This document shows, piece by piece, positions 38,781 through 50,515 of a stretch of DNA of 64,000 nucleotides. A program made the translations under genes and the position numbers. Under the pieces are notes generated by a model. It saw nothing but the letters and a program-made list of their open reading frames with translations. It had not been told where the DNA came from and ran no database searches. Each line of letters starts with the position of its first letter. Positions within the stretch are counted from its first letter, which is position 1. The DNA comes from Cyanobacteriota bacterium (GTDB taxonomy: Bacteria; Cyanobacteriota; Cyanobacteriia; Thermostichales; Thermostichaceae). The DNA lies in the NCBI GenBank assembly GCA_033764955.1, contig JANRIL010000048.1, positions 32,001 through 96,000 of the forward strand, in the 5' to 3' direction.

Positions 38781-39497
38781 ATGGCAGAAAAAAATAATCC
38801 CATTCAAAAAATTAGTTATTTTGACGAGGGGTATCGCGCCCAAAAATTTGCTCAACTGCATCAAAAAAAGGATGTTTTCTTTGTGCAGGTTGGTGGCATG
38901 GATGGCAAGCAGTTTGATCCCATTTATCCTGCTGTCCAAAGGTATGGCTGGTCCGGCTTAATTGTGGAGCCATTGCCTGATTTATACGCCCTCCTTTGTC
39001 AAACCTATCAACCCTATCCTCAAATTATTTTGGAAGCCTGCGCTATCACGGAAAGCTCAGGTTGGGTGACTATGCATCGCATTCCCTTAGCCATTGTAGA
39101 AGATGGATCCCTACCGGATTGGACAACGGGAATTGCATCGGTGCGAGAGGATGAGAATCGCTTAGGAGGTATCCGCAAAGATAGTCTTCTGTATGAGAAA
39201 ATCCAACCCTATTTGGTTCAGGAACAGGTGGTAGGGCTAACGCTTGCTGAGCTGTTGGTCAAGCATCATGTTAAACAAATGGATGTCTTACAGATTGATG
39301 CTGAGGGCATGGACTACCATATTTTGAAGCAGCTTGACTTTTCAACCTATCAACCCTATCTAATCAACCTAGAATTTGCGAATTTACCCGAGTCAGAACA
39401 ACTGGCTACCCTTGATTTATTGGAGCAGCATGGCTATCGTTATCGCTGTGAAGCAGGACATGGGTTAGATTTATTGGCCGAGCGCTTGCTAGAATAG
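38781..39497 (+). CDS. FkbM-family methyltransferase
   Basis: FVQVGGMDG, VEP, LQIDAEGMD. Confidence 0.88.
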   Translation: MAEKNNPIQKISYFDEGYRAQKFAQLHQKKDVFFVQVGGMDGKQFDPIYPAVQRYGWSGLIVEPLPDLYALLCQTYQPYPQIILEACAITESSGWVTMHRIPLAIVEDGSLPDWTTGIASVREDENRLGGIRKDSLLYEKIQPYLVQEQVVGLTLAELLVKHHVKQMDVLQIDAEGMDYHILKQLDFSTYQPYLINLEFANLPESEQLATLDLLEQHGYRYRCEAGHGLDLLAERLLE

Positions 39498-39630
39498 CTA
39501 ACTAGGATCATCGTTGTCGCCGGAGCTATTTGCTGGCAGACTACAAAAAGAGGGCTTCACACCTGTCTTGGTATGAGTTCTTACTGTTTTTTATCCTAAT
39601 CTTTACCCGTTAATTACAGGGAGTTAAATT

Positions 39631-39816
39631 GTGGAATTTCCTGAACTTAAAGCTCTTGTAGAACGCGCTCTAGAAGATAAACAGCTAACCCGATATGAAC
39701 AACGACAAATTATGATGGCAGTGGTGGATGACAAAACAATTTCACCGGAAGAGCATGAATTGCTCGAATCGATTGTGGAAAAGATTTCTAGCGGCGAGAT
39801 CAAGGCTGTTGATTAG
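39631..39816 (+). CDS. Small hypothetical protein with two EF-hand-like loops
   Basis: GGAG RBS; EDKQLTRYE and DDKTISPEE. Confidence 0.7.
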   Translation: MEFPELKALVERALEDKQLTRYEQRQIMMAVVDDKTISPEEHELLESIVEKISSGEIKAVD

Positions 39817-39865
39817 CAACATCATTCCATAGACATATTCTTGGCTGGCAAGGATTCTTAGGTCT

Positions 39866-41080
39866 CTACTTTGTCCTAAGTTCTCTCCTAACGTCGGTAA
39901 CTCGCCAACTAAGGTGCAGATTGAGATAAAAGTTCCAAAACATGACTGTGGCAATAGCCAACAGGTTTGCCAACAAATAGTGAATACCCAACCCATCCGT
40001 TAACATAATCAGGAGTAGCGAGTTAATTCCTAAACCCAGCAAGCAGATTACGTTAAATTTCACCAACCGTTTCAGCCGATTATGGGATCCCGGTTGTTTA
40101 CGGGTAATATCTCGGAATGTCCAGAGATCATTCCACAAGAAGTTGTTGAGGATAGCACACTCTGCTGCCACCAATTTACTGGCTACTAGGCCAAATCCCC
40201 AGCCCGTCGCATCATGCAATAGGTAGAGCAAGCTCATGTCCACCAAAACCCCTGAGCAGCCCACTAATCCGAAGCGCAGAAATCGCAGGATAGGCCAAAG
40301 AGAGAGCCGTAAATAGAGAAGATGCTGGAGATAGTGCCCATAAACCTGTAAAGAAATTTTGCTTTCCCCTTCCTGTCGTTCTTGAAAGACGTAACCCACT
40401 TCGCTAATCTGGCTGATGCTGCCCCGCCCCAACACTTCAATCAATATTTTGTAGCCAAAGGGATAGAGATCTCTCCCCGCAATCGCTGTCCGCCGCACTA
40501 AAAAAAATCCACTTAAGGGATCCGTCACCCGCCCTAGGATCCCTGGCAAAAGAATCAAACCAATTAACTGTGCCCCCCGCGAAATGATCCGCCGCTCAAC
40601 ACTCCATTGACTGACCCCACCCCCTTCCACATGGCGACTGGCAACCGCCAGATCGGATCCTGCCTGCATAGCTGCCACTAGATCTAGCAAGACATGGGGA
40701 GGATGCTGCAAATCTCCATCGATGACTCCCAAAACCTGCCCCCGCGCCAGTTGCCACCCTTGTAAGACAGCAGTCGCCAGTCCCCGGTCTCCCTGACGAC
40801 GCAGTACACGCAAGGCCGGATACTCTGCTCGTAAAAATTCGGCAACTTGCCATGTTTGATCCGGGCTGTCATCATCCACCACCACCAACTCATATTGATT
40901 GGCAAGAATAGGATCTAACAACTGACTAAGCTGGGCAATCAGGGGTTTCAGATTATGCGCTTCGTTATAAGTAGGAATGACCAACGACAAGAACAAGGGA
41001 TCCCCCGTCGCCAAAGACAAAGCTGGCACCCGATAGGCGCGCATTCCCCAATTTTGCGACATCATACTCCTCACACCCAC
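39866..41080 (-). CDS. GT2 polyprenol-phosphate glycosyltransferase fused to GtrA-like domain
   Basis: VIPTYNE, VVDDDSPD, IDGDLQHPP, DPLSGFF; C-terminal RFGLVG and four TM segments; start uncertain. Confidence 0.92.
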   Translation of the reverse strand: MGVRSMMSQNWGMRAYRVPALSLATGDPLFLSLVIPTYNEAHNLKPLIAQLSQLLDPILANQYELVVVDDDSPDQTWQVAEFLRAEYPALRVLRRQGDRGLATAVLQGWQLARGQVLGVIDGDLQHPPHVLLDLVAAMQAGSDLAVASRHVEGGGVSQWSVERRIISRGAQLIGLILLPGILGRVTDPLSGFFLVRRTAIAGRDLYPFGYKILIEVLGRGSISQISEVGYVFQERQEGESKISLQVYGHYLQHLLYLRLSLWPILRFLRFGLVGCSGVLVDMSLLYLLHDATGWGFGLVASKLVAAECAILNNFLWNDLWTFRDITRKQPGSHNRLKRLVKFNVICLLGLGINSLLLIMLTDGLGIHYLLANLLAIATVMFWNFYLNLHLSWRVTDVRRELRTK

Positions 41081-41137
41081 AACACATCAATCTGCACAAC
41101 CCTACCAGAGAATAGGAGTAAACGCAGAAAAACAGGA

Positions 41138-42304
41138 TTATTTTATCGAGAATTGTCGCCATGCTGAACTGAACAAATAGGCGATAACTTGAGAACGATA
41201 CGGCAAATTCCAAATCACTCGTAAGAACTCTATCCAATCCGGTTTAGCAAAATCAGCTTGGCAAGGGTAATTGGCACAGTAGTAGTGATAAGCCACTTGA
41301 TAGTTTTTTATATTTAGGCTAAGAACCCGAATGGGTTTAGAGGGATGCATCATACCCCATAGTAAAGCCGTCTGTTGCCAGGATATTTTTATCTTTGAAA
41401 TAGAATGAACAACTAAATCATATTCTGGCTGTTGAGCAAGATATTCGGGTAAAAGGTTATGCAGAAACTTTAAGCCAACTTGCAACGATAGCAAAGTATG
41501 GGAGCAGGTTGCTATTTGGATTAACTCGTGCCAGTTAATAGATTCAGAATGAGCAAAAATCATGCAAGCATCTGCAATCCATCGTAGAGGTGGAACATCA
41601 TTCCATGCCAATCCATGTGAGATAACATGTAATAGCAAATCTATTTTATTGAGAGTTTGAATTTCCCTCCCTTGGAAGTAAGCTGTTTTTGCTCTTTGCC
41701 AAGGATCATAACCGGGAAACAGAAACCAATGTAGATCAATCTCATAACCATATTGATTATGAAATGCTATAGAACCAAACCGATATTGAATCATATCCTT
41801 AGGAGTTTCGTTTATTCGATTCATGATTTCCGGATATTTAATATGCCAGCCAGCATTTAACAAAATATTGATAGCCAGAGTAATAGAATTAGATGGAATC
41901 AAGATATCAATATCCTGCATCGGACGAAAGCAAGGGCTAGAGTAAAAACCATCTGCCACTAGGGAAAATCCCTTAAGAAACAGTATGGGTATACCTTGAT
42001 GTTCCATTACGTCAATAACTTGTTGAGCAAAATAAAATAGGAGTTGATTACTAAAAGAAGCTTTACGGCGGATGCCTCTTAATTTCTGAGTTAAATCATC
42101 CCGAATGGAACAACTTTCAAGGTTATATGATAAAAGTGGAATTAATTTCAAACTACCTGCATCAAGGTTGTCAATGCTTTCATATTGACGCCATGTTGTC
42201 CAGGCTGACCCTACTTGTTTGGGATCCCTTGATAGTGCTGCCGTCAAGAGAAGCTTCTGGCTAGAATTGGGCAGGCTGTTACCTTGATAATTTCTAGTTT
42301 TCAT
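41138..42304 (-). CDS. Nucleotidyltransferase (NTP_transf_5-like)
   Basis: FLKG...RPMQDIDILI...EIDLHW, LRWIADA. Confidence 0.88.
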   Translation of the reverse strand: MKTRNYQGNSLPNSSQKLLLTAALSRDPKQVGSAWTTWRQYESIDNLDAGSLKLIPLLSYNLESCSIRDDLTQKLRGIRRKASFSNQLLFYFAQQVIDVMEHQGIPILFLKGFSLVADGFYSSPCFRPMQDIDILIPSNSITLAINILLNAGWHIKYPEIMNRINETPKDMIQYRFGSIAFHNQYGYEIDLHWFLFPGYDPWQRAKTAYFQGREIQTLNKIDLLLHVISHGLAWNDVPPLRWIADACMIFAHSESINWHELIQIATCSHTLLSLQVGLKFLHNLLPEYLAQQPEYDLVVHSISKIKISWQQTALLWGMMHPSKPIRVLSLNIKNYQVAYHYYCANYPCQADFAKPDWIEFLRVIWNLPYRSQVIAYLFSSAWRQFSIK

Positions 42305-42992
42305 GCCAACCTCGCCGCCGATCTAAGATCTTTTTGAGGATTCCTGGAAAATATTTTGGGGCAGGATCTCGTCGGCACAAGTTATTCTGATGCACCCGCC
42401 GCAACAGAACAGTTTGAGGCAACATCATTTCAACAAGTTTTTGGTCTTGAGCACGGGCATACCAATCCATAAAAAATCCACTATCAAAATCACCTATCTT
42501 CTCAAAAGAACAACGGTTGATCAGCATTGCCCCTCGTAGATAGCCACAGACAGGTTGCTCGTTAACTTTTAGTTTAGAACGCTCCTGTTCACTTAGATCT
42601 GGGCTAATAAATTGCTGTACATGACCAAAAACCATATCAACGTCTGGATTCTTCTGCATGGCATCTATTTGTGCAGATAGCTTTCGAGGCAGCCAAATAT
42701 CATCAGCATCGATAAAAGCTAAATAATTTCCCTGAGCCAGACGGATCCCTTGTTTAAGAGCTTCGGAGGCGCTATCTTTTGACTCCCAACATCCCTGCTT
42801 AACATAGTGAACAGGTTCTCCAAATGATTGAACAATAGAAGCAGATTGATCTGTAGAAAAATCATCAACAACAATAACCTCTAAAACAGGATAATCCTGA
42901 TCAAGAATAGATTGTATAGCATCACGAATATAAAGCTCACCATTATACATGGGTATAACAACACTAACTTGGAATAGGTTGGATAAGTGCAT
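42294..42992 (-). CDS. Glycosyltransferase family 2
   Basis: VSVVIPMYN, VVDDFSTD, FIDADDIW, RRVHQNN. Confidence 0.92.
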   Translation of the reverse strand: MHLSNLFQVSVVIPMYNGELYIRDAIQSILDQDYPVLEVIVVDDFSTDQSASIVQSFGEPVHYVKQGCWESKDSASEALKQGIRLAQGNYLAFIDADDIWLPRKLSAQIDAMQKNPDVDMVFGHVQQFISPDLSEQERSKLKVNEQPVCGYLRGAMLINRCSFEKIGDFDSGFFMDWYARAQDQKLVEMMLPQTVLLRRVHQNNLCRRDPAPKYFPGILKKILDRRRGWHEN

Positions 42993-43030
42993 ATCTAAAG
43001 TTCACAACTAAGATGTGGTGAGAGGTTCAG

Positions 43031-43924
43031 TTAATTCAACCAGCTTGATAGATCAGTTTGTATCAAATCCTGAAGATGAAGAATGTCATCACGAAAATAT
43101 TCAGTAAGTTCTCCTCTCATATCCAAATCTAGGGGAGGAATGGTTTGTTTGGGTAAATAATGAGATAGGCGGAGAGGCCATTGTACATAAGGTTCAAGTT
43201 CAGGGTTAAACATTGTTCTTCCATGAATGAATACAAAAGCTTTTCTGTATAAGAGGTTACCAAAAAGAATTTGACCTAAGAGAGGAAACTTGGGGATCCA
43301 GCCCGGATTTGAGTGAGGAAACTTTATGTCAAAAGATGAGATTGATAGAAAGGAAAAGATTTTTTCAAGAATTGCAACTTGTTTTTCTTGAACGTGTGTG
43401 GTTAAATCCTCAAATAAAATGGGCAAAACTTGGTCTTTATCAAAAAGATTGTAATATCGTTTGAGGCAACTGAAGTACATGCCTCGTGCTCTATAATTAA
43501 AAGGACCCGCCTCTGAGCTATTCTTCATCGCCAAATAGAAATCTAAACCAGACTCTCTACCTAAACGAACTTCATGGTTAAAGTGAGCATAAGCCCGATC
43601 AACAGGATGACGAAGAGTAGCTAGAAGTTTCACCTGAGGGATGAGTTTATTAATGCGCTGGGGAGCGTTAGGGCAAGAAAGATATGCAGTTGTTGCTTCT
43701 CCACATAGCTGACCCTCTTTAGCCTCCTCAAAAAACTGACTATACTTTCTCACTTCTGGGGTAGACATTAGATTATGATTTTGCCAGCATGGTAAGTCTT
43801 TATTAAAAAATCGAAGCTCCTTAATTTGACTCATATAAATATCGGGATGTTGGGCAAGAAAGTGGTATAGGGATGAACTGCCTGCTTTATGTGCACCAAT
43901 AACTAACAGATTCGGCAGTTTCAT
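43031..43924 (-). CDS. PAPS-dependent sulfotransferase
   Basis: IGAHKAGSSSL..L.QHP, KELRFF, GEATTAY, LRHPVDRAY. Confidence 0.9.
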   Translation of the reverse strand: MKLPNLLVIGAHKAGSSSLYHFLAQHPDIYMSQIKELRFFNKDLPCWQNHNLMSTPEVRKYSQFFEEAKEGQLCGEATTAYLSCPNAPQRINKLIPQVKLLATLRHPVDRAYAHFNHEVRLGRESGLDFYLAMKNSSEAGPFNYRARGMYFSCLKRYYNLFDKDQVLPILFEDLTTHVQEKQVAILEKIFSFLSISSFDIKFPHSNPGWIPKFPLLGQILFGNLLYRKAFVFIHGRTMFNPELEPYVQWPLRLSHYLPKQTIPPLDLDMRGELTEYFRDDILHLQDLIQTDLSSWLN

Positions 43925-45066
43925 GGAAATCCTTCTCCGTCCAATTGCTGATAAATGCGGCTAAAAGTGCTAGCACAACGATCTAAACTGAATATTTCTA
44001 TGGAGCGGCGACGGGCTGCTAGACCCATATTTTCTGCAATTTGTGGATGCTCAAGCAGATGAATAACTGAGGATACTAACCCTTGCTGATCATCTCGCTC
44101 AATCAGTAAGCCCGTTTCATTGTCCACAACAATTTCTGGGATCCCACCATCTCGCGTGGCAACAATTGGTCTTGCCATCTGAGCTGCTTGCAGAGCCACA
44201 AGACCAAAAGGTTCATTCCAACGAGAGGGCATTAAAATTATGCTAACAGAGTTTAGCAATGCGGCTACCTTATCTTTTTCAACCCATCCTAAAAATTTAA
44301 CTTGGTTGCTAATCTCTAAAGCCTCAACAAGATCAACTAAAGCAGGCATTTCTGGTCCACCGCCTGCAATGATCAGTTGACAATCTGGAATTTTTTTTAA
44401 AATTGAGGGCATAGCTTTTATTGCTAAATCAAATCCTTTATGTGGAACAATACGACCCAAACATAATAGCTTAGGGGGACTAAAAGTAATTGTTTCGGGG
44501 ATAGCATCAGGAATATAAAGACCATTATAGACAAGTTCAGCCTTATGAGAGATTTCGGGGAAAACCGCTAAAAAATCCTTCATGAGTGATTCTGATACGG
44601 CAGTTATTCGCTGAGCTTTACTTAAAACCTTTGTAATTATGGACTCCGAGTTGATTGTAATTTCAGGGTGAAAAATTGGATTAAGTGGTGAATGAAGAGA
44701 ATAAAGAATAGGTATATCCTTGATTTTTGACATCCTTATTATTCTTTCAAAAAAGAATATACTTGGAGATTGAGTATTAACATGTAAGATATTAGGATTA
44801 AACTTAACGATGATCTCACAAATTATTGTAATTAGATCTTTCATTCTCTTGAGATCATGATCATCGAGGATTTTACGAAATGGGAAACGATGTACGGAAA
44901 GATTAGTATTGGTGCTGTCTGGAAGATCTGATTTACGAACTTTGTTGGAGGTAATAACGCAAAACTGATGCCCCTGTTGACAGAGGTAAGTGATCAGATC
45001 AGATGATAGGATCTCAACTCCTCCAATGTCTGGGAAAAATTGCTCGGACCAGTAAAGCACTTTCAT
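43921..45066 (-). CDS. Glycosyltransferase family 4
   Basis: GGVE, YNG, GRIVPHKGFD, EPFGLVALQA, GGIPEIV. Confidence 0.93.
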   Translation of the reverse strand: MKVLYWSEQFFPDIGGVEILSSDLITYLCQQGHQFCVITSNKVRKSDLPDSTNTNLSVHRFPFRKILDDHDLKRMKDLITIICEIIVKFNPNILHVNTQSPSIFFFERIIRMSKIKDIPILYSLHSPLNPIFHPEITINSESIITKVLSKAQRITAVSESLMKDFLAVFPEISHKAELVYNGLYIPDAIPETITFSPPKLLCLGRIVPHKGFDLAIKAMPSILKKIPDCQLIIAGGGPEMPALVDLVEALEISNQVKFLGWVEKDKVAALLNSVSIILMPSRWNEPFGLVALQAAQMARPIVATRDGGIPEIVVDNETGLLIERDDQQGLVSSVIHLLEHPQIAENMGLAARRRSIEIFSLDRCASTFSRIYQQLDGEGFP

Positions 45067-45068
45067 AG

Positions 45069-46154
45069 CTAACTTAATAATAAATCAAAAACACACTGGT
45101 AAACTGCTTTTAGATCCTGCCCAACCTTAAACTGATAAACAGGCAACTGCTTAACTAGCTTACCTATACTTGTGAAAGTCCAATCCCTTGATCCGGCTAA
45201 GGATGTTAGAATTCTTAAGGTGCTAGGGGCTAGGGTACGGATCCCTTGAGTCGGGCTAGCAAGTATTAGCTGACTAGAATGACTATCCACGATTTGTGGC
45301 ATCAGTATAGCTTTAATTGGTAATGAAGGCATAACTCTCTCAGGGGTATGTTGTGCAGTGAATAACACTGCTTTCTCGTGATCCCAAAAAGAGAAAGAAG
45401 GTAGCGGTTGATCCAATCTTTCAAAGAGTTTTTGACTGTTAAGAGAAAGTTTTCCTGTGTTGTATAAGCTAAAAACTCTTGGATCAGGTTCTAATGAAAC
45501 CATACAAAAATCATCACTGATATAGTTCATACCCTGATGCCAGCAAGCTAAGGCAGTGGTTGACTTACCAGCTCCACCATCTCCTACAATTAAAATACAG
45601 CTCTGTGAAGTGCCAACTGCCGCAGCGTGCAAAAAAAACAACTGTTTCCTTTCTAGCCACCAGAGCAGTATCCTAACAAGCGGTGCAGCTCTTTCATAAC
45701 TAATATCATAATTCTCAAAATCATGGATGCTTTCCATCCAAAATATGCCCTGCTGAGAGCGGAAATCTAAGATATTGATGACTTTAGGTTGAGTGCCAAT
45801 TGTTACTTTAATGTGATCTTTACAATTGTTCGCAACTTGTCCCGCACTCCAATAGTCAGCATGAGAAATTCCCAGGCTAGGTATAGCCATATTTGTTGAG
45901 TGGGCATCCCAGATAAAAATGGTCAAGGCAGGCTGACTTGACTGGGATGAGCTTTCTTGATCCGATGGTTTCCATGATAGATGGGCAAAAGCAGGTGTGA
46001 GGCAGTCAACCAATGATGAACCAATAAAGTTTAACTGAATATGGTAGCCAGCTATTAAGTAGTTTTTTACCGTTATGTCAGAAATGTCCCTGATTTTTTG
46101 AAATTGCTCAGTGACTGCCCAATATACTTTATGACTAGGGTCATATTCTGACAT
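45069..46154 (-). CDS. HPr kinase-like P-loop kinase
   Basis: FLHAAAVG, GDGGAGKSTT, YISDD; ATG 46154 lies just after the upstream stop. Confidence 0.88.
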   Translation of the reverse strand: MSEYDPSHKVYWAVTEQFQKIRDISDITVKNYLIAGYHIQLNFIGSSLVDCLTPAFAHLSWKPSDQESSSQSSQPALTIFIWDAHSTNMAIPSLGISHADYWSAGQVANNCKDHIKVTIGTQPKVINILDFRSQQGIFWMESIHDFENYDISYERAAPLVRILLWWLERKQLFFLHAAAVGTSQSCILIVGDGGAGKSTTALACWHQGMNYISDDFCMVSLEPDPRVFSLYNTGKLSLNSQKLFERLDQPLPSFSFWDHEKAVLFTAQHTPERVMPSLPIKAILMPQIVDSHSSQLILASPTQGIRTLAPSTLRILTSLAGSRDWTFTSIGKLVKQLPVYQFKVGQDLKAVYQCVFDLLLS

Positions 46155-46156
46155 AA

Positions 46157-46594
46157 TCAATTTTTGGTTACGATCGGCCACCCATCCTCGCCAACCTCAT
46201 GAATGGGATCAAGGACAAGTAGATGCTGCATGTCAGCATAGCATTCTAACTTTGGAGCCTCGTAGACGATTTTTGTAGTTTCAGTAGTGGTAAGATTAGT
46301 AGCTAGTTCATCTGAAAGGCTATCTTTCATGATAATAAGTTGATACTCGTGTAGATGATCCAAAAATGTTTTTACATCAGAAGCAAACCCAAGTGGAGGA
46401 TCCCTGAAAACCTGGGGTATTTTACTAATGAGTTCATCCAGTGATATTCCCTCTTCCAGAAATCTCCAAATTTGTGTTCCTGACTGATTCAGACTAAAAT
46501 AAAGACCTGTTTCTAGATAAACAACAATAACTTCATCTCCGAAGTCTTCATAGCTGATTGCGGTGGAATTAATGAGCACAGTTTTGACATCCAT
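46157..46594 (-). CDS. PqqD/RRE-family protein with C-terminal leader/core-like extension
   Basis: DEVIVVYLETGLYFSLNQSGTQIW...DVKTFLDHL...LI (RRE pattern), Thr-rich linker, then YEAPKL...DMQHLLVLDPIHEVGEDGWP. Confidence 0.88.
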   Translation of the reverse strand: MDVKTVLINSTAISYEDFGDEVIVVYLETGLYFSLNQSGTQIWRFLEEGISLDELISKIPQVFRDPPLGFASDVKTFLDHLHEYQLIIMKDSLSDELATNLTTTETTKIVYEAPKLECYADMQHLLVLDPIHEVGEDGWPIVTKN

Positions 46595-47137
46595 ATTTCT
46601 TGAGCTTAGTAAAAACGGAGCATCATTAATCCTTTATTAGCTTCTTGCAGGCGCTAGCGTGGTGAGCAATTTCTGAATGACTTCGCTTGCTTATGGCAAT
46701 GTATATTCAGTAAAACTCGGAAGAAGTCAATATCCTACAAACACTAATACCTCAGATGATCAATAGATGCAACCGTCTTGAACCAATAAAATTTGAACAA
46801 GGTGAATATGCAGAAGCACATCGTGCCAATAGGTGAGTTTCTTTTAATCTCGATGACACCTCTGTTCAGAATCTTGAGAGGTTCCAATAGTTCTGAAGCT
46901 CCTGGTAGACTTACGTTTAAGCTTCTTGAACAGGTAGTTGAGGATGATCAAGGGTTAGTTGGTTGGCTAGGAGAAGAATGTCGAGGGCAACCTACCCTAG
47001 TAGCTCCCCCTATAATCCCCTTCCCTGGCTAGTTTTCTGGCATTCGGTCATCAAACTAGCTGACATTCTTACCAATCTGCTCTAATCTAGCGGACAGCCC
47101 ACGTTTCACAAAACGCTAGGAACAAAGGATCGGGATT

Positions 47138-48289
47138 ATGGCAGAAGGGGAGTACAAGCCGGGGTTAGAGGGGGTGCCTGCTACTAGCTCGAACATCAGT
47201 TTTGTGGATGGGCAAGTCGGATTGTTGGAATATCGCGGGATCCCGATTACCGAACTCACCACCCATAGTACCTTTTTAGAAACGGCGCATCTGCTGATCT
47301 ATGATCACCTACCCACTCAGACCGATCTGGAAGAATTTGAACAGGCTATTGTTGGGCATCGTCGCGTCAAGTACCGAATCATCGACATGATCAAATCCTT
47401 TCCTGAATCTGGTCACCCGATGGACGCCTTGCAAACCTGTGTGGCTGCCTTGGGTTTATTTTATCCGATTCAAGAATATTCCCATGATTATGTATTTGGC
47501 ACCGTAACTCGCCTGCTAGCCAAAGTTCCCACTTTAGTGGCTGCCTTTCATCAAATGCGGCAAGGCAACGATCCGATTCCTCCCCGCGATGATCTGGATC
47601 ATTCCGCTAATTTTCTCTATATGCTTTCGGGGCAAGTTCCGGATCCGGCACTGTCTAAAATTTTTGATACCTGCTTGATCATGCACGCCGAACATACGGT
47701 GAATGCCTCCACCTTTGCTTTATTGGTGACGGCTTCCACATTAGCCAATCCTTATAGCGCGATTGCTTCTGCCATTGGCACCCTCTCTGGACAATTGCAT
47801 GGGGGTGCCAATGAACAGGTGATGGTGATGCTGCGACAAATTGGTTCGGTAGAAAATGTTCGCCCCTTTATTGAGGAGAAACTAGCTAAAAAACAAAAGA
47901 TTATGGGGATTGGCCATCGGGTCTACAAAGTTAAAGATCCGCGAGCGATCATTCTACAAAAGTTTGCGGAAGCGATGTTCACCGGCAAGGAACATAGCAA
48001 ATTTTATGACATTGCTTTAGAGGTGGAAAAGGTCTGTGAGGAATTGGTGGGAGCCAAAGGCATTTATCCCAACGTCGATTTTTATTCCGGTTTGGTCTAT
48101 GCCAAGTTAGGGATCCCGGAGGATTTGTTTACCCCTGTATTTGCTATTTCGCGGGTGGCTGGATGGTTAGCCCATTGGCGGGAGCAGCTCTCCGATAACC
48201 GTCTTTTCCGCCCTACCCAGGTTTATACCGGATTGCGGGATCAATCTTATGTTCCCTTGGCAGAGCGGGTTTATCCGACTTCGGCATGA
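47138..48289 (+). CDS. gltA: Citrate synthase
   Basis: HAEHTVNAST, LHGGANE, GIGHRVYK..DPR, YPNVDFYSG. Confidence 0.98.
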   Translation: MAEGEYKPGLEGVPATSSNISFVDGQVGLLEYRGIPITELTTHSTFLETAHLLIYDHLPTQTDLEEFEQAIVGHRRVKYRIIDMIKSFPESGHPMDALQTCVAALGLFYPIQEYSHDYVFGTVTRLLAKVPTLVAAFHQMRQGNDPIPPRDDLDHSANFLYMLSGQVPDPALSKIFDTCLIMHAEHTVNASTFALLVTASTLANPYSAIASAIGTLSGQLHGGANEQVMVMLRQIGSVENVRPFIEEKLAKKQKIMGIGHRVYKVKDPRAIILQKFAEAMFTGKEHSKFYDIALEVEKVCEELVGAKGIYPNVDFYSGLVYAKLGIPEDLFTPVFAISRVAGWLAHWREQLSDNRLFRPTQVYTGLRDQSYVPLAERVYPTSA

Positions 48290-49038: not shown

Positions 49039-49120
49039 CAATTTCCCTCCACCTCGATGGATCAAGCGATACCCTGGAGGGGTAAACTTTTGTAGCTGCT
49101 GGGTGTCGAGTTTAACTGCC

Positions 49121-50515
49121 ATGAGAGAAAAACCCTTGCGAGTTGTGATCGTTCGCCACGGTGAAAGCACCTTCAATATCGAAAAACGCATCCAGGGGCG
49201 CTCCGATCAGGCGGTGCTGACGAATCACGGCCAAACCCAAGCCCAAGCGGTCGCCCAAGCTCTCGCTCCGCTGCCTATTCATCTGGCCTTCAGTAGCCCC
49301 CTGCAACGGGCGCAGCGAACCGCCCAGATCATCCTGGCGGAACGTGACGGCATCCCTTTCGTCAGCACCGATCTCTTGCGGGAGATTGATCTGACGGCCT
49401 GGGAGGGATTGACTTTTGCCGAGGTCAAGCAAAAATTTCCAGAGGATCATCAACGCTGGCGCTACCATCCCCATTTGCTGTCTCTCCACCAACGCTATCC
49501 GGTGGTCGATCTCTGGCAACAGGCTCAAGACTTTTGGACTTATCTTGGGCAGGAAATGGAGAAGATCTCGCCTAATGGGGATGAAGAGTCGGATCCGTCC
49601 CCCATGACCATTTTGGTTGTCGGACACAGTGGCATCAACCGCGCCTTGATCGGGGCAAGCACGGGCATTCATTGCCAGCACTACCACCGCTTCGGGCAGG
49701 ATAACTGTGCCCTATCAATTCTGAACTTTCCCCACGGTTTAAACCATCCCGCCCAGTTAGAGTCCCTCAACCTCACCCATCATTTAGGGGATCCCTTGCC
49801 CCAATCAAAAGGGGGATTGCGTTTGCTGTTAGTGCGCCACGGGGAGACTCAGTGGAACCGTGAACAACGCTTTCAGGGACAAAAAGATATCCCCCTCAAT
49901 GCCACCGGAGAGGAGCAGGCGCAGCAAGTCGGCGCTTTTTTGGCATCCCAGTCCATTGATCTGGCTTTTTCTAGCCCTTTGTTGCGCCCTTGGGCAACCG
50001 CTATGGCCATTTGCCAGCAACATGCTAGCCAGTTGGGATCCCCCTTAGATCTGGTGCCTTTGCCCGATTTACAAGAAATCTGTCATGGAGAGTGGGAGGG
50101 CAAACTGCAAAGGGAGATTGAAGCGGAATATCCTGGGCTACTGGAACAATGGCAGCAGGCTCCCGCGACGGTGGATATGCCCTGCGGAGAAAATCTGCAA
50201 CAGGTTTGGCAACGCGCTCAACAAGCCTGGAATACCATCTTGGAAAAGTCGGCTCAAACCCTAGCCAACCCATCAGCGGAGAGTCCCCATCTGACTACGC
50301 TGGTGGTCGCCCACGATGCCATCAACAAAGCAATTCTCTGTCAGCTTTTTGATCGTTCCCCAGAAGCGTTTTGGCTATTTAAGCAAGGGAATGGGGCCGT
50401 CACAGTGATTGACTATCCTGAAGGGGCAGAAGGGTTTCCTGTCCTGCGTTGCCTGAATATCACCAGTCATCTAACGGGGGGAGTCTTAGACAGCACCGCT
50501 GCCGGAGCCTTATAA
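49121..50515 (+). CDS. Double-domain histidine phosphatase (phosphoglycerate mutase-like; possible phosphoserine phosphatase)
   Basis: Two RHG motifs (VRHGES, VRHGET); C-terminal GGVLDSTAAGAL. Confidence 0.9.
   Translation: MREKPLRVVIVRHGESTFNIEKRIQGRSDQAVLTNHGQTQAQAVAQALAPLPIHLAFSSPLQRAQRTAQIILAERDGIPFVSTDLLREIDLTAWEGLTFAEVKQKFPEDHQRWRYHPHLLSLHQRYPVVDLWQQAQDFWTYLGQEMEKISPNGDEESDPSPMTILVVGHSGINRALIGASTGIHCQHYHRFGQDNCALSILNFPHGLNHPAQLESLNLTHHLGDPLPQSKGGLRLLLVRHGETQWNREQRFQGQKDIPLNATGEEQAQQVGAFLASQSIDLAFSSPLLRPWATAMAICQQHASQLGSPLDLVPLPDLQEICHGEWEGKLQREIEAEYPGLLEQWQQAPATVDMPCGENLQQVWQRAQQAWNTILEKSAQTLANPSAESPHLTTLVVAHDAINKAILCQLFDRSPEAFWLFKQGNGAVTVIDYPEGAEGFPVLRCLNITSHLTGGVLDSTAAGAL

Follow-up and report, generated by a model that had tools for sequence, protein, structure and literature searches.

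A lasso-type RRE with a fused leader-like tail in a broadly distributed family of PqqD proteins encoded among kinase and glycosyltransferase genes

Closest described systems

The closest published system to the locus described here is that of the linear polyphosphorylated peptides (LPPs) of Bacillota, whose clusters encode LppA/K/B/S/D/N (Popov et al., Nat Commun 2026, PMC13381572). There, LppB is a discrete RRE, LppA is a separate precursor with the pattern YxxPxVLxHQxIxFETxxS, and the HprK-like kinase LppK polyphosphorylates the Ser at +3 behind the YxxPxVL leader, refusing Thr or Tyr in place of Ser (PMC13381572). Cleavage after Thr-1 is carried out by LppS, a peptidase of SpI type, export falls to LppD, and for the PF14907-type enzyme LppN the LPP study saw no activity; the paper leaves both the function of the PF14907 enzyme and the final product of tailoring unresolved, and its authors term LPPs and paeninodins restricted to Bacillota (PMC13381572). 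Related tailoring is found in paeninodin (PadeK) and pseudomycoidin (PsmK/PsmN), where a Ser-O-phosphate is formed and a hexose is then placed on the phosphate, the addition of hexoses in pseudomycoidin being the work of a PF14907-type enzyme (PMC8498205).

The locus studied here lies in a window of 64,000 nucleotides, by which we mean the whole stretch of DNA analysed (Cyanobacteriota bacterium, contig JANRIL010000048.1). As in the LPP system, the family to which its PqqD protein belongs brings together a lasso-type RRE, which in LPP and probably here reads [Y/W]xxPx[L/V], an HprK-like kinase and an NTP transferase of the PF14907 type; a macrolactam cyclase is absent from both, both sit among glycosyltransferase genes, and an MsbA-like ABC exporter accompanies many of the relatives, although the window cluster has no LppD-like exporter. 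There are also differences. LPP has a separate LppA with a variable core, whereas in the window family the RRE carries the leader itself and the tail is invariant; LPP needs the SpI-type leader peptidase LppS, whereas the window cluster is without a peptidase; LPP has a conserved Ser acceptor, whereas the motif of the window family contains no conserved Ser; and LPP was described as restricted to Bacillota, whereas the present family is found in other phyla. Of the components that define an LPP cluster, a kinase and a PF14907 gene next to a lasso-type RRE were found, and a separate precursor, LppS and LppD were not. In lasso B1 systems, the leader is likewise a separate molecule and the partners of the RRE are a B2 protease and a C cyclase, whereas in the window's genome and the annotated loci of relatives neither enzyme was found beyond two marginal Asn_synthase fragments.

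In the HPr-rel-A / HprK-related kinase A and B systems (TIGR04352, TIGR04355), a PqqD-family protein adjoins an HprK-related kinase. The window likewise has a PqqD protein beside a kinase, but that kinase stays below the cut-offs of both models (37.8 and 30.1 bits, respectively, against 200). The paeninodin and pseudomycoidin modules share with the window an HprK-like kinase, a PF14907 nucleotidyltransferase and a sulfotransferase, but their enzymes modify a C-terminal Ser of the lasso precursor, whereas the tails of the window family end variably and often without Ser (PMC8498205). Judged from its genes, the cassette appears related to those of decorated lasso peptides but lacks the ring-forming enzymes. 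What is known here is RRE-guided tailoring of the LPP/lasso type; what is new is the fusion of the leader to the RRE, in a large uncharacterised family. Leaving aside the supplements of the LPP paper, which possibly hold non-Bacillota relatives, the published literature yielded no paper with the motif strings and none describing an RRE fused to its own leader.

Domain layout of the tail-bearing protein

The 145-residue protein is encoded on the reverse strand at 46157..46594 (stop codon at 46157-46159) by an open reading frame supported by a Pfam PqqD match and by full-length relatives, and its translation agrees exactly with the one quoted in the earlier note, which had read it as an RRE followed by a linker and a tail. 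Residues 1-91 (46322..46594, reverse strand) form the RRE domain of PqqD fold: PF05402 matches residues 21-87 with an E-value of 7.8e-14 and 52.2 bits (cut-off 23.4), and this assignment to the PqqD/RRE fold is backed by an AF2 model and by Foldseek. Within the domain, a GxYYSL strand (residues 30-35) is conserved, with G30 in 184/185, Y32 in 185/185 and S34 in 176/185 aligned sequences. More specific models stayed below their cut-offs. TIGR03859 (PQQ biosynthesis PqqD) gave 21.9 bits against 46, the lasso B1 models NF033536 and NF033530 gave 36.2 against 80 and 25.3 against 70, the GeoRSP and ScmD models of NCBIfam scored far under theirs, and the HPr-rel-A PqqD and amphi-Trp models did not match the tail protein at E<=0.01.

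The domain is followed on the same strand by a variable, Ser/Thr-rich linker, SLSDELATNLTTTETTKIV (residues 92-110, 46265..46321; pLDDT 57-67), of which residues 92-108 read SLSDELATNLTTTETTK and which is conserved neither in length nor in sequence across an alignment of 27 relatives. The remainder, residues 111-145 or YEAPKLECYADMQHLLVLDPIHEVGEDGWPIVTKN, corresponds to nucleotides 46157-46264 including the stop codon and has three parts, all on the reverse strand. A leader-like segment, YEAPKLECYADMQHLLVL (residues 111-128, 46211..46264), is marked out by an AF2 strand, by conservation and by an association between Y111 and D73. Next comes the near-invariant and exposed motif DPIHEVGEDGWP (residues 129-140, 46175..46210), the codons of which were checked by hand and which takes the form DP[IV]H[ED]Vxx-x-GWP in the family. 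Last is a variable C-terminal end, IVTKN, with the stop codon (46157..46174); no residue after GWP is conserved in the relatives.

Docking of the leader-like segment on its own RRE

Modelled with AF2 from a 27-row alignment, the protein had a mean pLDDT of 81.7, with the RRE confident at 83-95. Residues 111-120 reached a pLDDT of 93 and include a strand (115-119), which is followed by a short helix (122-126), and motif residues 129-140 came out disordered (pLDDT 53-60) in this model of the 145-residue protein alone. The equivalent strand was confident again (pLDDT 87) in the AF2 model of a natural fusion protein, P0009. The best PDB match found by Foldseek was TbiB1 (5v1v_A, E 1.2e-4), a lasso B1 protein whose structure includes the bound leader, and other RRE-leader complexes rank behind it in the list; identities of 28-31% and TM-scores of 0.82-0.86 on the target were obtained for TbiB1 (5V1V/5V1U) and 6JX3. 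These best structural matches, the TbiB1-TbiA structures and 6JX3, have the same kind of leader motif as the window RRE. Of the proposal that YEAPKL adds a strand to the RRE and docks there, the strand itself is modelled with confidence at residues 115-119; its partner strand, presumably residues 32-36 of the RRE, is one that we infer rather than see.

In an alignment of 185 sequences, the highest mutual information of tail position 111 was with RRE positions 73 and 71, which scored equally. Where residue 111 is Tyr, position 73 is Asp in 10/17 sequences and Gln or Glu in four more, whereas in sequences with Phe111 it is Ala, Ser, Gly or Val, with Asp in only 2/152. Among representatives less than 60% identical, Asp73 was found in 9/16 with Tyr111 versus 2/127 with Phe111 (Fisher p 1e-8, a value that ignores relatedness). 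A tree-aware independent-pairs test of Y111 against D73 was underpowered, with only four supported pairs and a median p of 0.5; about 1.6 of these pairs ran in the same direction and none in the opposite one. On the best tree, which is poorly supported, Y/F changes 16 times and D/other 11 times. An association of W111 with Gly73 was set aside, as it came from near-identical Prosthecomicrobium sequences amounting to one representative. The Tyr111-Asp73 covariation mirrors the hydrogen bond described between LppB D70 and leader Tyr(-16) (PMC13381572), the residue pair that fixes the leader tyrosine in published RRE complexes. The strand at pLDDT 93, the TbiB1 match and this covariation all speak for the earlier idea that the RRE binds its own leader in cis; on these modelled and statistical grounds, it probably does carry and bind such a leader.

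Conservation and distribution of the tail

The tail is the most conserved part of the family, as its near-unvarying positions occur in proteins that are only 25-36% identical overall. In the 27 aligned relatives, D129, P130, I131, H132, E133, V134, G135, E136, G138, W139 and P140 are invariant. The expectation that homologues would keep the tail was borne out in these relatives, in 52 distinct tails and in a pattern-free search, the tail being conserved more strongly than the RRE itself and far beyond what chance would give.

Further loci were collected with a peptide scan for DPIHEVGE, so that the invariance of these eight residues in loci L002-L051 is partly circular through ascertainment; GWP and the leader-like positions lay outside the scan pattern. 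Among 185,579 species genomes, the scan gave 53 matches, of which 20 were confirmed by tblastn and one was then dropped. The rejected locus (L021), a chance match, is a 469-residue open frame in which PqqD and GWP are both missing and only residues 111-136 are matched. In metagenomes, the pattern matched 70 times and 30 loci were confirmed, and the RRE and the tail share one reading frame at all 49 true loci (49/49; 19 from genomes and 30 from metagenomes). With Asp129 counted as position 0, the 52 distinct tails have an aromatic residue at -18 in 48/52, Pro at -15 in 48/52, a hydrophobic residue at -13 in 52/52, Tyr or Phe at -10 in 51/52, Asp or Glu at -8 in 52/52, and GWP at +9 to +11 in 51-52/52. 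In relatives with a single RRE unit, 3 to 18 residues (median 9) follow GWP; they are variable and sometimes include no hydroxyl residue at all.

When 1.84 billion representatives were searched with HMMER, free of any pattern, 21,443 matches reached E<=1e-3, most of them generic PqqD proteins. At E<=1e-30, the family comprises 1,238 representative clusters (50% identity), and the best 150 are almost all full-length proteins with RRE and tail. The expression D[PA].H, followed by five further residues and [GA]W[PA], fits 138/148 new top matches, and most of the remaining ten depart from it through one inserted residue or one substitution. Their consensus reads F-x-x-P-x-L-x-K-Y-T-D-M-Q-D-L-L-L-L-D-P-[IV]-H-[ED]-V-[DG]-E-x-G-W-P. 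In the 138, D(-8), D0, P1, H3, G9, W10 and P11 do not vary, although D0, H3 and W10 are set by the expression itself.

A word-index search found eight clusters, including the window's own, with the tail in all eight; this index is insensitive for the family, because longer fusions surfaced only with HMMER. In that same insensitive index, no protein of 30-78 residues shares words with the tail, so that no stand-alone tail peptide was found, and none of the open reading frames in the upstream intergenic region carries a [YWF]xxPxL motif. Together with the joining of RRE and tail at every true locus, these searches agree with the earlier statement that no separate precursor is visible.

Members of the family are broadly distributed. 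Record titles place carriers in Chloroflexota, Actinomycetota, Alphaproteobacteria, Verrucomicrobia, Planctomycetota, Acidobacteria and Deltaproteobacteria. The family thus spans at least seven phylum-level groups, and one of its carriers, Prosthecomicrobium hirschii (locus L018), is in culture. In the window's own phylum, 22/301 sampled genomes (the window's genome counted) match at E<=1e-15, representing 19/134 genera; the distribution is patchy, the sole sampled genome of the same taxonomic family as the window giving no match. Databases name these proteins only "PqqD family protein" or "hypothetical".

The gene cassette and the loci of relatives

The window gene is followed on the reverse strand by a gene for an HprK-like P-loop kinase (45069..46154; PF07475, E 3.3e-4), which likely starts at the ATG at 46154, 2 nt past the PqqD stop codon; an alternative GTG at 46181 would make the two genes overlap. 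Walker A residues G196, K197 and S198 of the kinase, as well as D214 and D215, do not vary among 27 orthologues. The kinase gene is succeeded, on the same strand and gap-free, by five others. These encode a GT4 glycosyltransferase (43921..45066; PF00534, E 2.3e-39), also present in loci L011 and L018; a sulfotransferase (43031..43924; PF13469 and PF00685), also present in L007, L014, L015 and L032; a short GT2 glycosyltransferase (42294..42992; PF00535, E 7.3e-30); a PF14907 (NTP_transf_5) nucleotidyltransferase (41138..42304; E 5.7e-36); and a membrane glycosyltransferase of GT2 plus GtrA/DPMS type (39866..41080; PF00535 and PF04138). The short GT2 has orthologues in 27 loci, which are 27-45% identical, with a mean column identity of 47% and an invariant DxD, and it is the best conserved enzyme partner. 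The GT2-GtrA gene is a possible member of the cluster; it is not conserved in relatives, only its GT2 part being matched elsewhere.

A single PqqD gene and a single PF14907 gene occur in the genome, which is 89% complete, and they lie within this cluster. Pfam searches of the window cluster revealed neither a peptidase nor a cyclase, and neither an exporter nor a radical SAM gene; an LppS-like peptidase of SpI type (archaeal-type signal peptidase I) is absent from the cluster, and weak PF10502 matches lie on other contigs of the genome. A promoter and terminator scan of 39500-47300 gave nothing above shuffled expectation, Rfam had no matches in the whole window and PADLOC none for four cluster proteins.

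The enzymes of the window were then compared with all loci by tblastn, counts being restricted to the 25 loci for which 5 kb or more of downstream sequence was available. An HprK-like kinase was found in 19/25, a GT2 in 21/25, a PF14907 nucleotidyltransferase in 20/25, an ABC protein (exporter) in 9/25 and a radical SAM gene directly upstream in 7/25, the MsbA-like ABC exporter occurring in relatives such as L003, L004, L008 and L011. Neither a peptidase nor an Asn-synthase-like cyclase nor a separate precursor was found among 81 annotated neighbouring ORFs of relatives (15 + 20 + 46, Pfam). Five loci have no kinase nearby; in four of these cases a strong orthologue lies elsewhere in the genome (E 8e-58 to 4e-89), while PF14907 is present in all five genomes. 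The remaining genome, that of L007, has no clear kinase orthologue, the best match (E 3e-10) covering the P-loop only, and nevertheless keeps the motif.

The connection to the kinase, part of the earlier inference, is upheld both by the order of the genes and by natural proteins that fuse RRE and kinase. In five distinct clusters of 781-849 residues, three tandem RRE units are joined to the same kinase family, and other family proteins carry two or three RRE units. Each unit of these multi-RRE proteins has a leader-like strand of LPFxxPx type, and DPxH..GWP is found in one unit only; from this pattern, the cis strand looks integral to each RRE unit and the motif looks like a separate module present once per protein. 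Such an arrangement fits a docking handle as well as a substrate. In the AF2 model of P0009, an (RRE)x3-kinase fusion modelled from a shallow 10-row alignment, motif residues 126-152 fell below pLDDT 50, so that the model gives no sign of the motif docking on the kinase. A complex prediction of tail residues 106-145 with kinase and GT2 alignments scored 0.00; it was run without controls and weighs neither way.

Possible roles of the conserved tail

The architecture, conservation, gene linkage and natural kinase fusions described above are matters of observation, on which the following proposal builds. The protein would be a lasso-B1-type RRE with its own leader-like peptide fused behind a flexible linker, whose [FYW]xxPx[L/F/V] segment would fill the peptide-binding groove of the RRE in cis, in the fashion of a leader, leaving a short amphipathic stretch and the exposed DP[IV]H[ED]V..xGWP motif to project from the complex. 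It may serve as the peptide partner dedicated to an LPP-like cassette that lacks the lasso enzymes (kinase, PF14907 and GT2 enzymes, here with a GT4 and a sulfotransferase), the enzymes of which would recognise the invariant motif and decorate the protein with sugars linked through phosphate, as the analogy with LPP, paeninodin and pseudomycoidin would suggest. Since no peptidase is encoded, the pathway would end with the decorated protein. As a whole, the best explanation is that the protein acts on behalf of the neighbouring enzymes as their substrate or scaffold, and we give it about an even chance; that the tail is modified, on which residue and by which chemistry, is inferred.

RREs are known as binders of a separate leader, and a large natural family with a leader of its own would be a further rewiring of RiPP machinery, one that turns a peptide pathway into an apparent protein-decorating or scaffold system. 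With a substrate candidate that is fixed and invariant, the function of PF14907 and the final product of LPP- and paeninodin-type tailoring become directly testable.

Several observations count against a substrate. The invariant motif has no conserved Ser, Thr or Tyr, and LppK accepted neither Thr nor Tyr in place of Ser (PMC13381572). The nearest frequent hydroxyl residue is Thr or Ser at -9, found in 114/138 top matches and in 146/185 aligned sequences. The window protein has Ala120 at this place, and position -9, considered as a universal phospho-acceptor, was rejected for this protein for that reason. The motif is also disordered in both AF2 models, including that of the kinase-containing fusion, and the L007 genome keeps it without a clear kinase orthologue.

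The main rival to a substrate or scaffold is a docking role, which we regard as possible but doubtful. The RRE and its cis leader would then be a permanently loaded adaptor, and the motif would dock on or activate the kinase, the nucleotidyltransferase or the GT2, which would act on something else, for example a glycan, a lipid, or a peptide or protein that has no leader, leaving the PqqD protein unmodified. Leader peptides supplied in trans or fused to the enzyme can activate RiPP enzymes, and a motif rich in Pro, Trp, His and acidic residues, devoid of hydroxyl residues and present once per polypeptide even where there are three RRE units, would suit such a function. The GT2, GT4, sulfotransferase and ABC transporter content is likewise reminiscent of glycan synthesis. 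However, no alternative substrate gene is conserved in the annotated loci, no model put the motif on the kinase, and the homologous LPP and paeninodin enzymes act on a leader-bearing peptide.

An unlikely alternative is that the tail is a true precursor, its conserved C-terminal part being cut by an unlinked protease into a small conserved molecule comparable to a cofactor or signal (PQQ, mycofactocin). A short C-terminal stretch conserved across phyla does resemble the cores of cofactor-type RiPPs, and the exporters and upstream radical SAM genes counted in the longer loci (9/25 and 7/25) would fit a released product. Against this, neither the window cluster nor the annotated loci encode a peptidase, the window cluster has neither the radical SAM gene nor the exporter, and the residues beyond GWP are variable.

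A more speculative version of the decorated protein, which we consider improbable, would make it a self-priming carrier. When the aromatic residue of the leader is taken as index 0, the phosphorylated Ser of LPP (+3) falls on index 18, which is the invariant Asp129 in the window protein, a correspondence that could be coincidence. The cis-docked leader would present the motif to the kinase at this register, the non-hydroxyl residue Asp129 or His132 would be activated, and a phosphate-linked and, here, sulfated glycan would be built there by the nucleotidyltransferase, GT2, GT4 and sulfotransferase. If true, this would be a protein-primed glycoconjugate from RiPP-derived machinery, with a linkage chemistry undescribed for this enzyme set. 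Asp129 precedes an invariant Pro, which cannot form a succinimide.

Last, the tail had been read as a lasso precursor fused to its own B1 protein, with the core DPIHEVGEDGWP... cyclised through Glu136 or Asp137, a reading that is now close to refuted and that we regard as highly improbable. The YxxPxL motif does stand at a lasso-like spacing, the RRE is closest to the lasso B1 protein TbiB1, and the count behind the proposed ring was correct, in that E136 and D137 are positions 8 and 9 when D129 is position 1. However, the lasso B2 protease PF13471 has no match in the window's own genome (89% complete), where Asn_synthase PF00733 gave only two marginal, partial matches of 22 bits on contigs other than the window's (C42 and C48); the annotated loci of relatives have neither a B2 protease nor an Asn-synthase-like macrolactam cyclase, the lasso B1 models stay far from their cut-offs (36 and 25 bits against 80 and 70), and the two acidic residues of the supposed ring, at positions +7 and +8, vary across the wider family.

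Distribution and architecture of the PqqD-tail family

The exhaustive HMMER search with the window protein yielded over 1,200 clusters, against only 8 relatives in the word-index protein search. With short proteins of high divergence, word-index searching makes a family look far smaller than it is. Among the HMMER clusters are natural fusions occurring outside the window (P0009, P0013, P0014, P0016 and P0017; 781-849 aa), in which three tandem RRE units are joined to an HprK-like kinase and the DPVHDV..GWP motif is confined to the first RRE unit. Three RRE units also occur without the kinase in P0010 (398 aa) and P0012 (392 aa).

Tail variation and origin of the window copy

At tail position -9, counted from Asp129 of the motif, Thr or Ser is found in 146 of the 185 relatives and Asp or Glu in 15, and the window protein carries Ala120 (codon at window 46235-46237). 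Five relatives from the window's phylum (loci L053, L054 and L056-L058) all have Ser or Thr at this position and display DPIHEVDE instead of DPIHEVGE. The copy in the window lies on a different sub-branch from theirs, and its gene was possibly acquired by transfer.

Genomic neighbourhoods

In acidobacterial, delta-type and planctomycete relatives, a radical SAM gene lies directly upstream of the PqqD-tail gene (L016:8600-9949, L019:8624-9946 and L020:7527-8429), including one fused to a GlcNAc 2-epimerase domain (L015:6808-8982). Since the window cluster has no radical SAM gene, some branches of the family may add a radical modification. In two Solirubrobacterales genomes (L009:10828-12744 and L010:10887-12803), the PqqD-tail gene neighbours a CHASE2-TIR protein and stands apart from the enzymes; another contig carries the genes for the kinase and the PF14907 nucleotidyltransferase.

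At the distal end of the window cluster, the opposite (+) strand carries two possible further members of the cluster, an FkbM-type methyltransferase (window 38781-39497) and an acidic 61-aa ORF without family match (39631-39816). Elsewhere in the window, a 470-aa ORF (49103-50515, + strand) is predicted to comprise two tandem histidine-phosphatase-like halves of the RHGE(S/T) type, its translation displaying LRVVIVRHGES and a second such motif, LLLVRHGETQWN.
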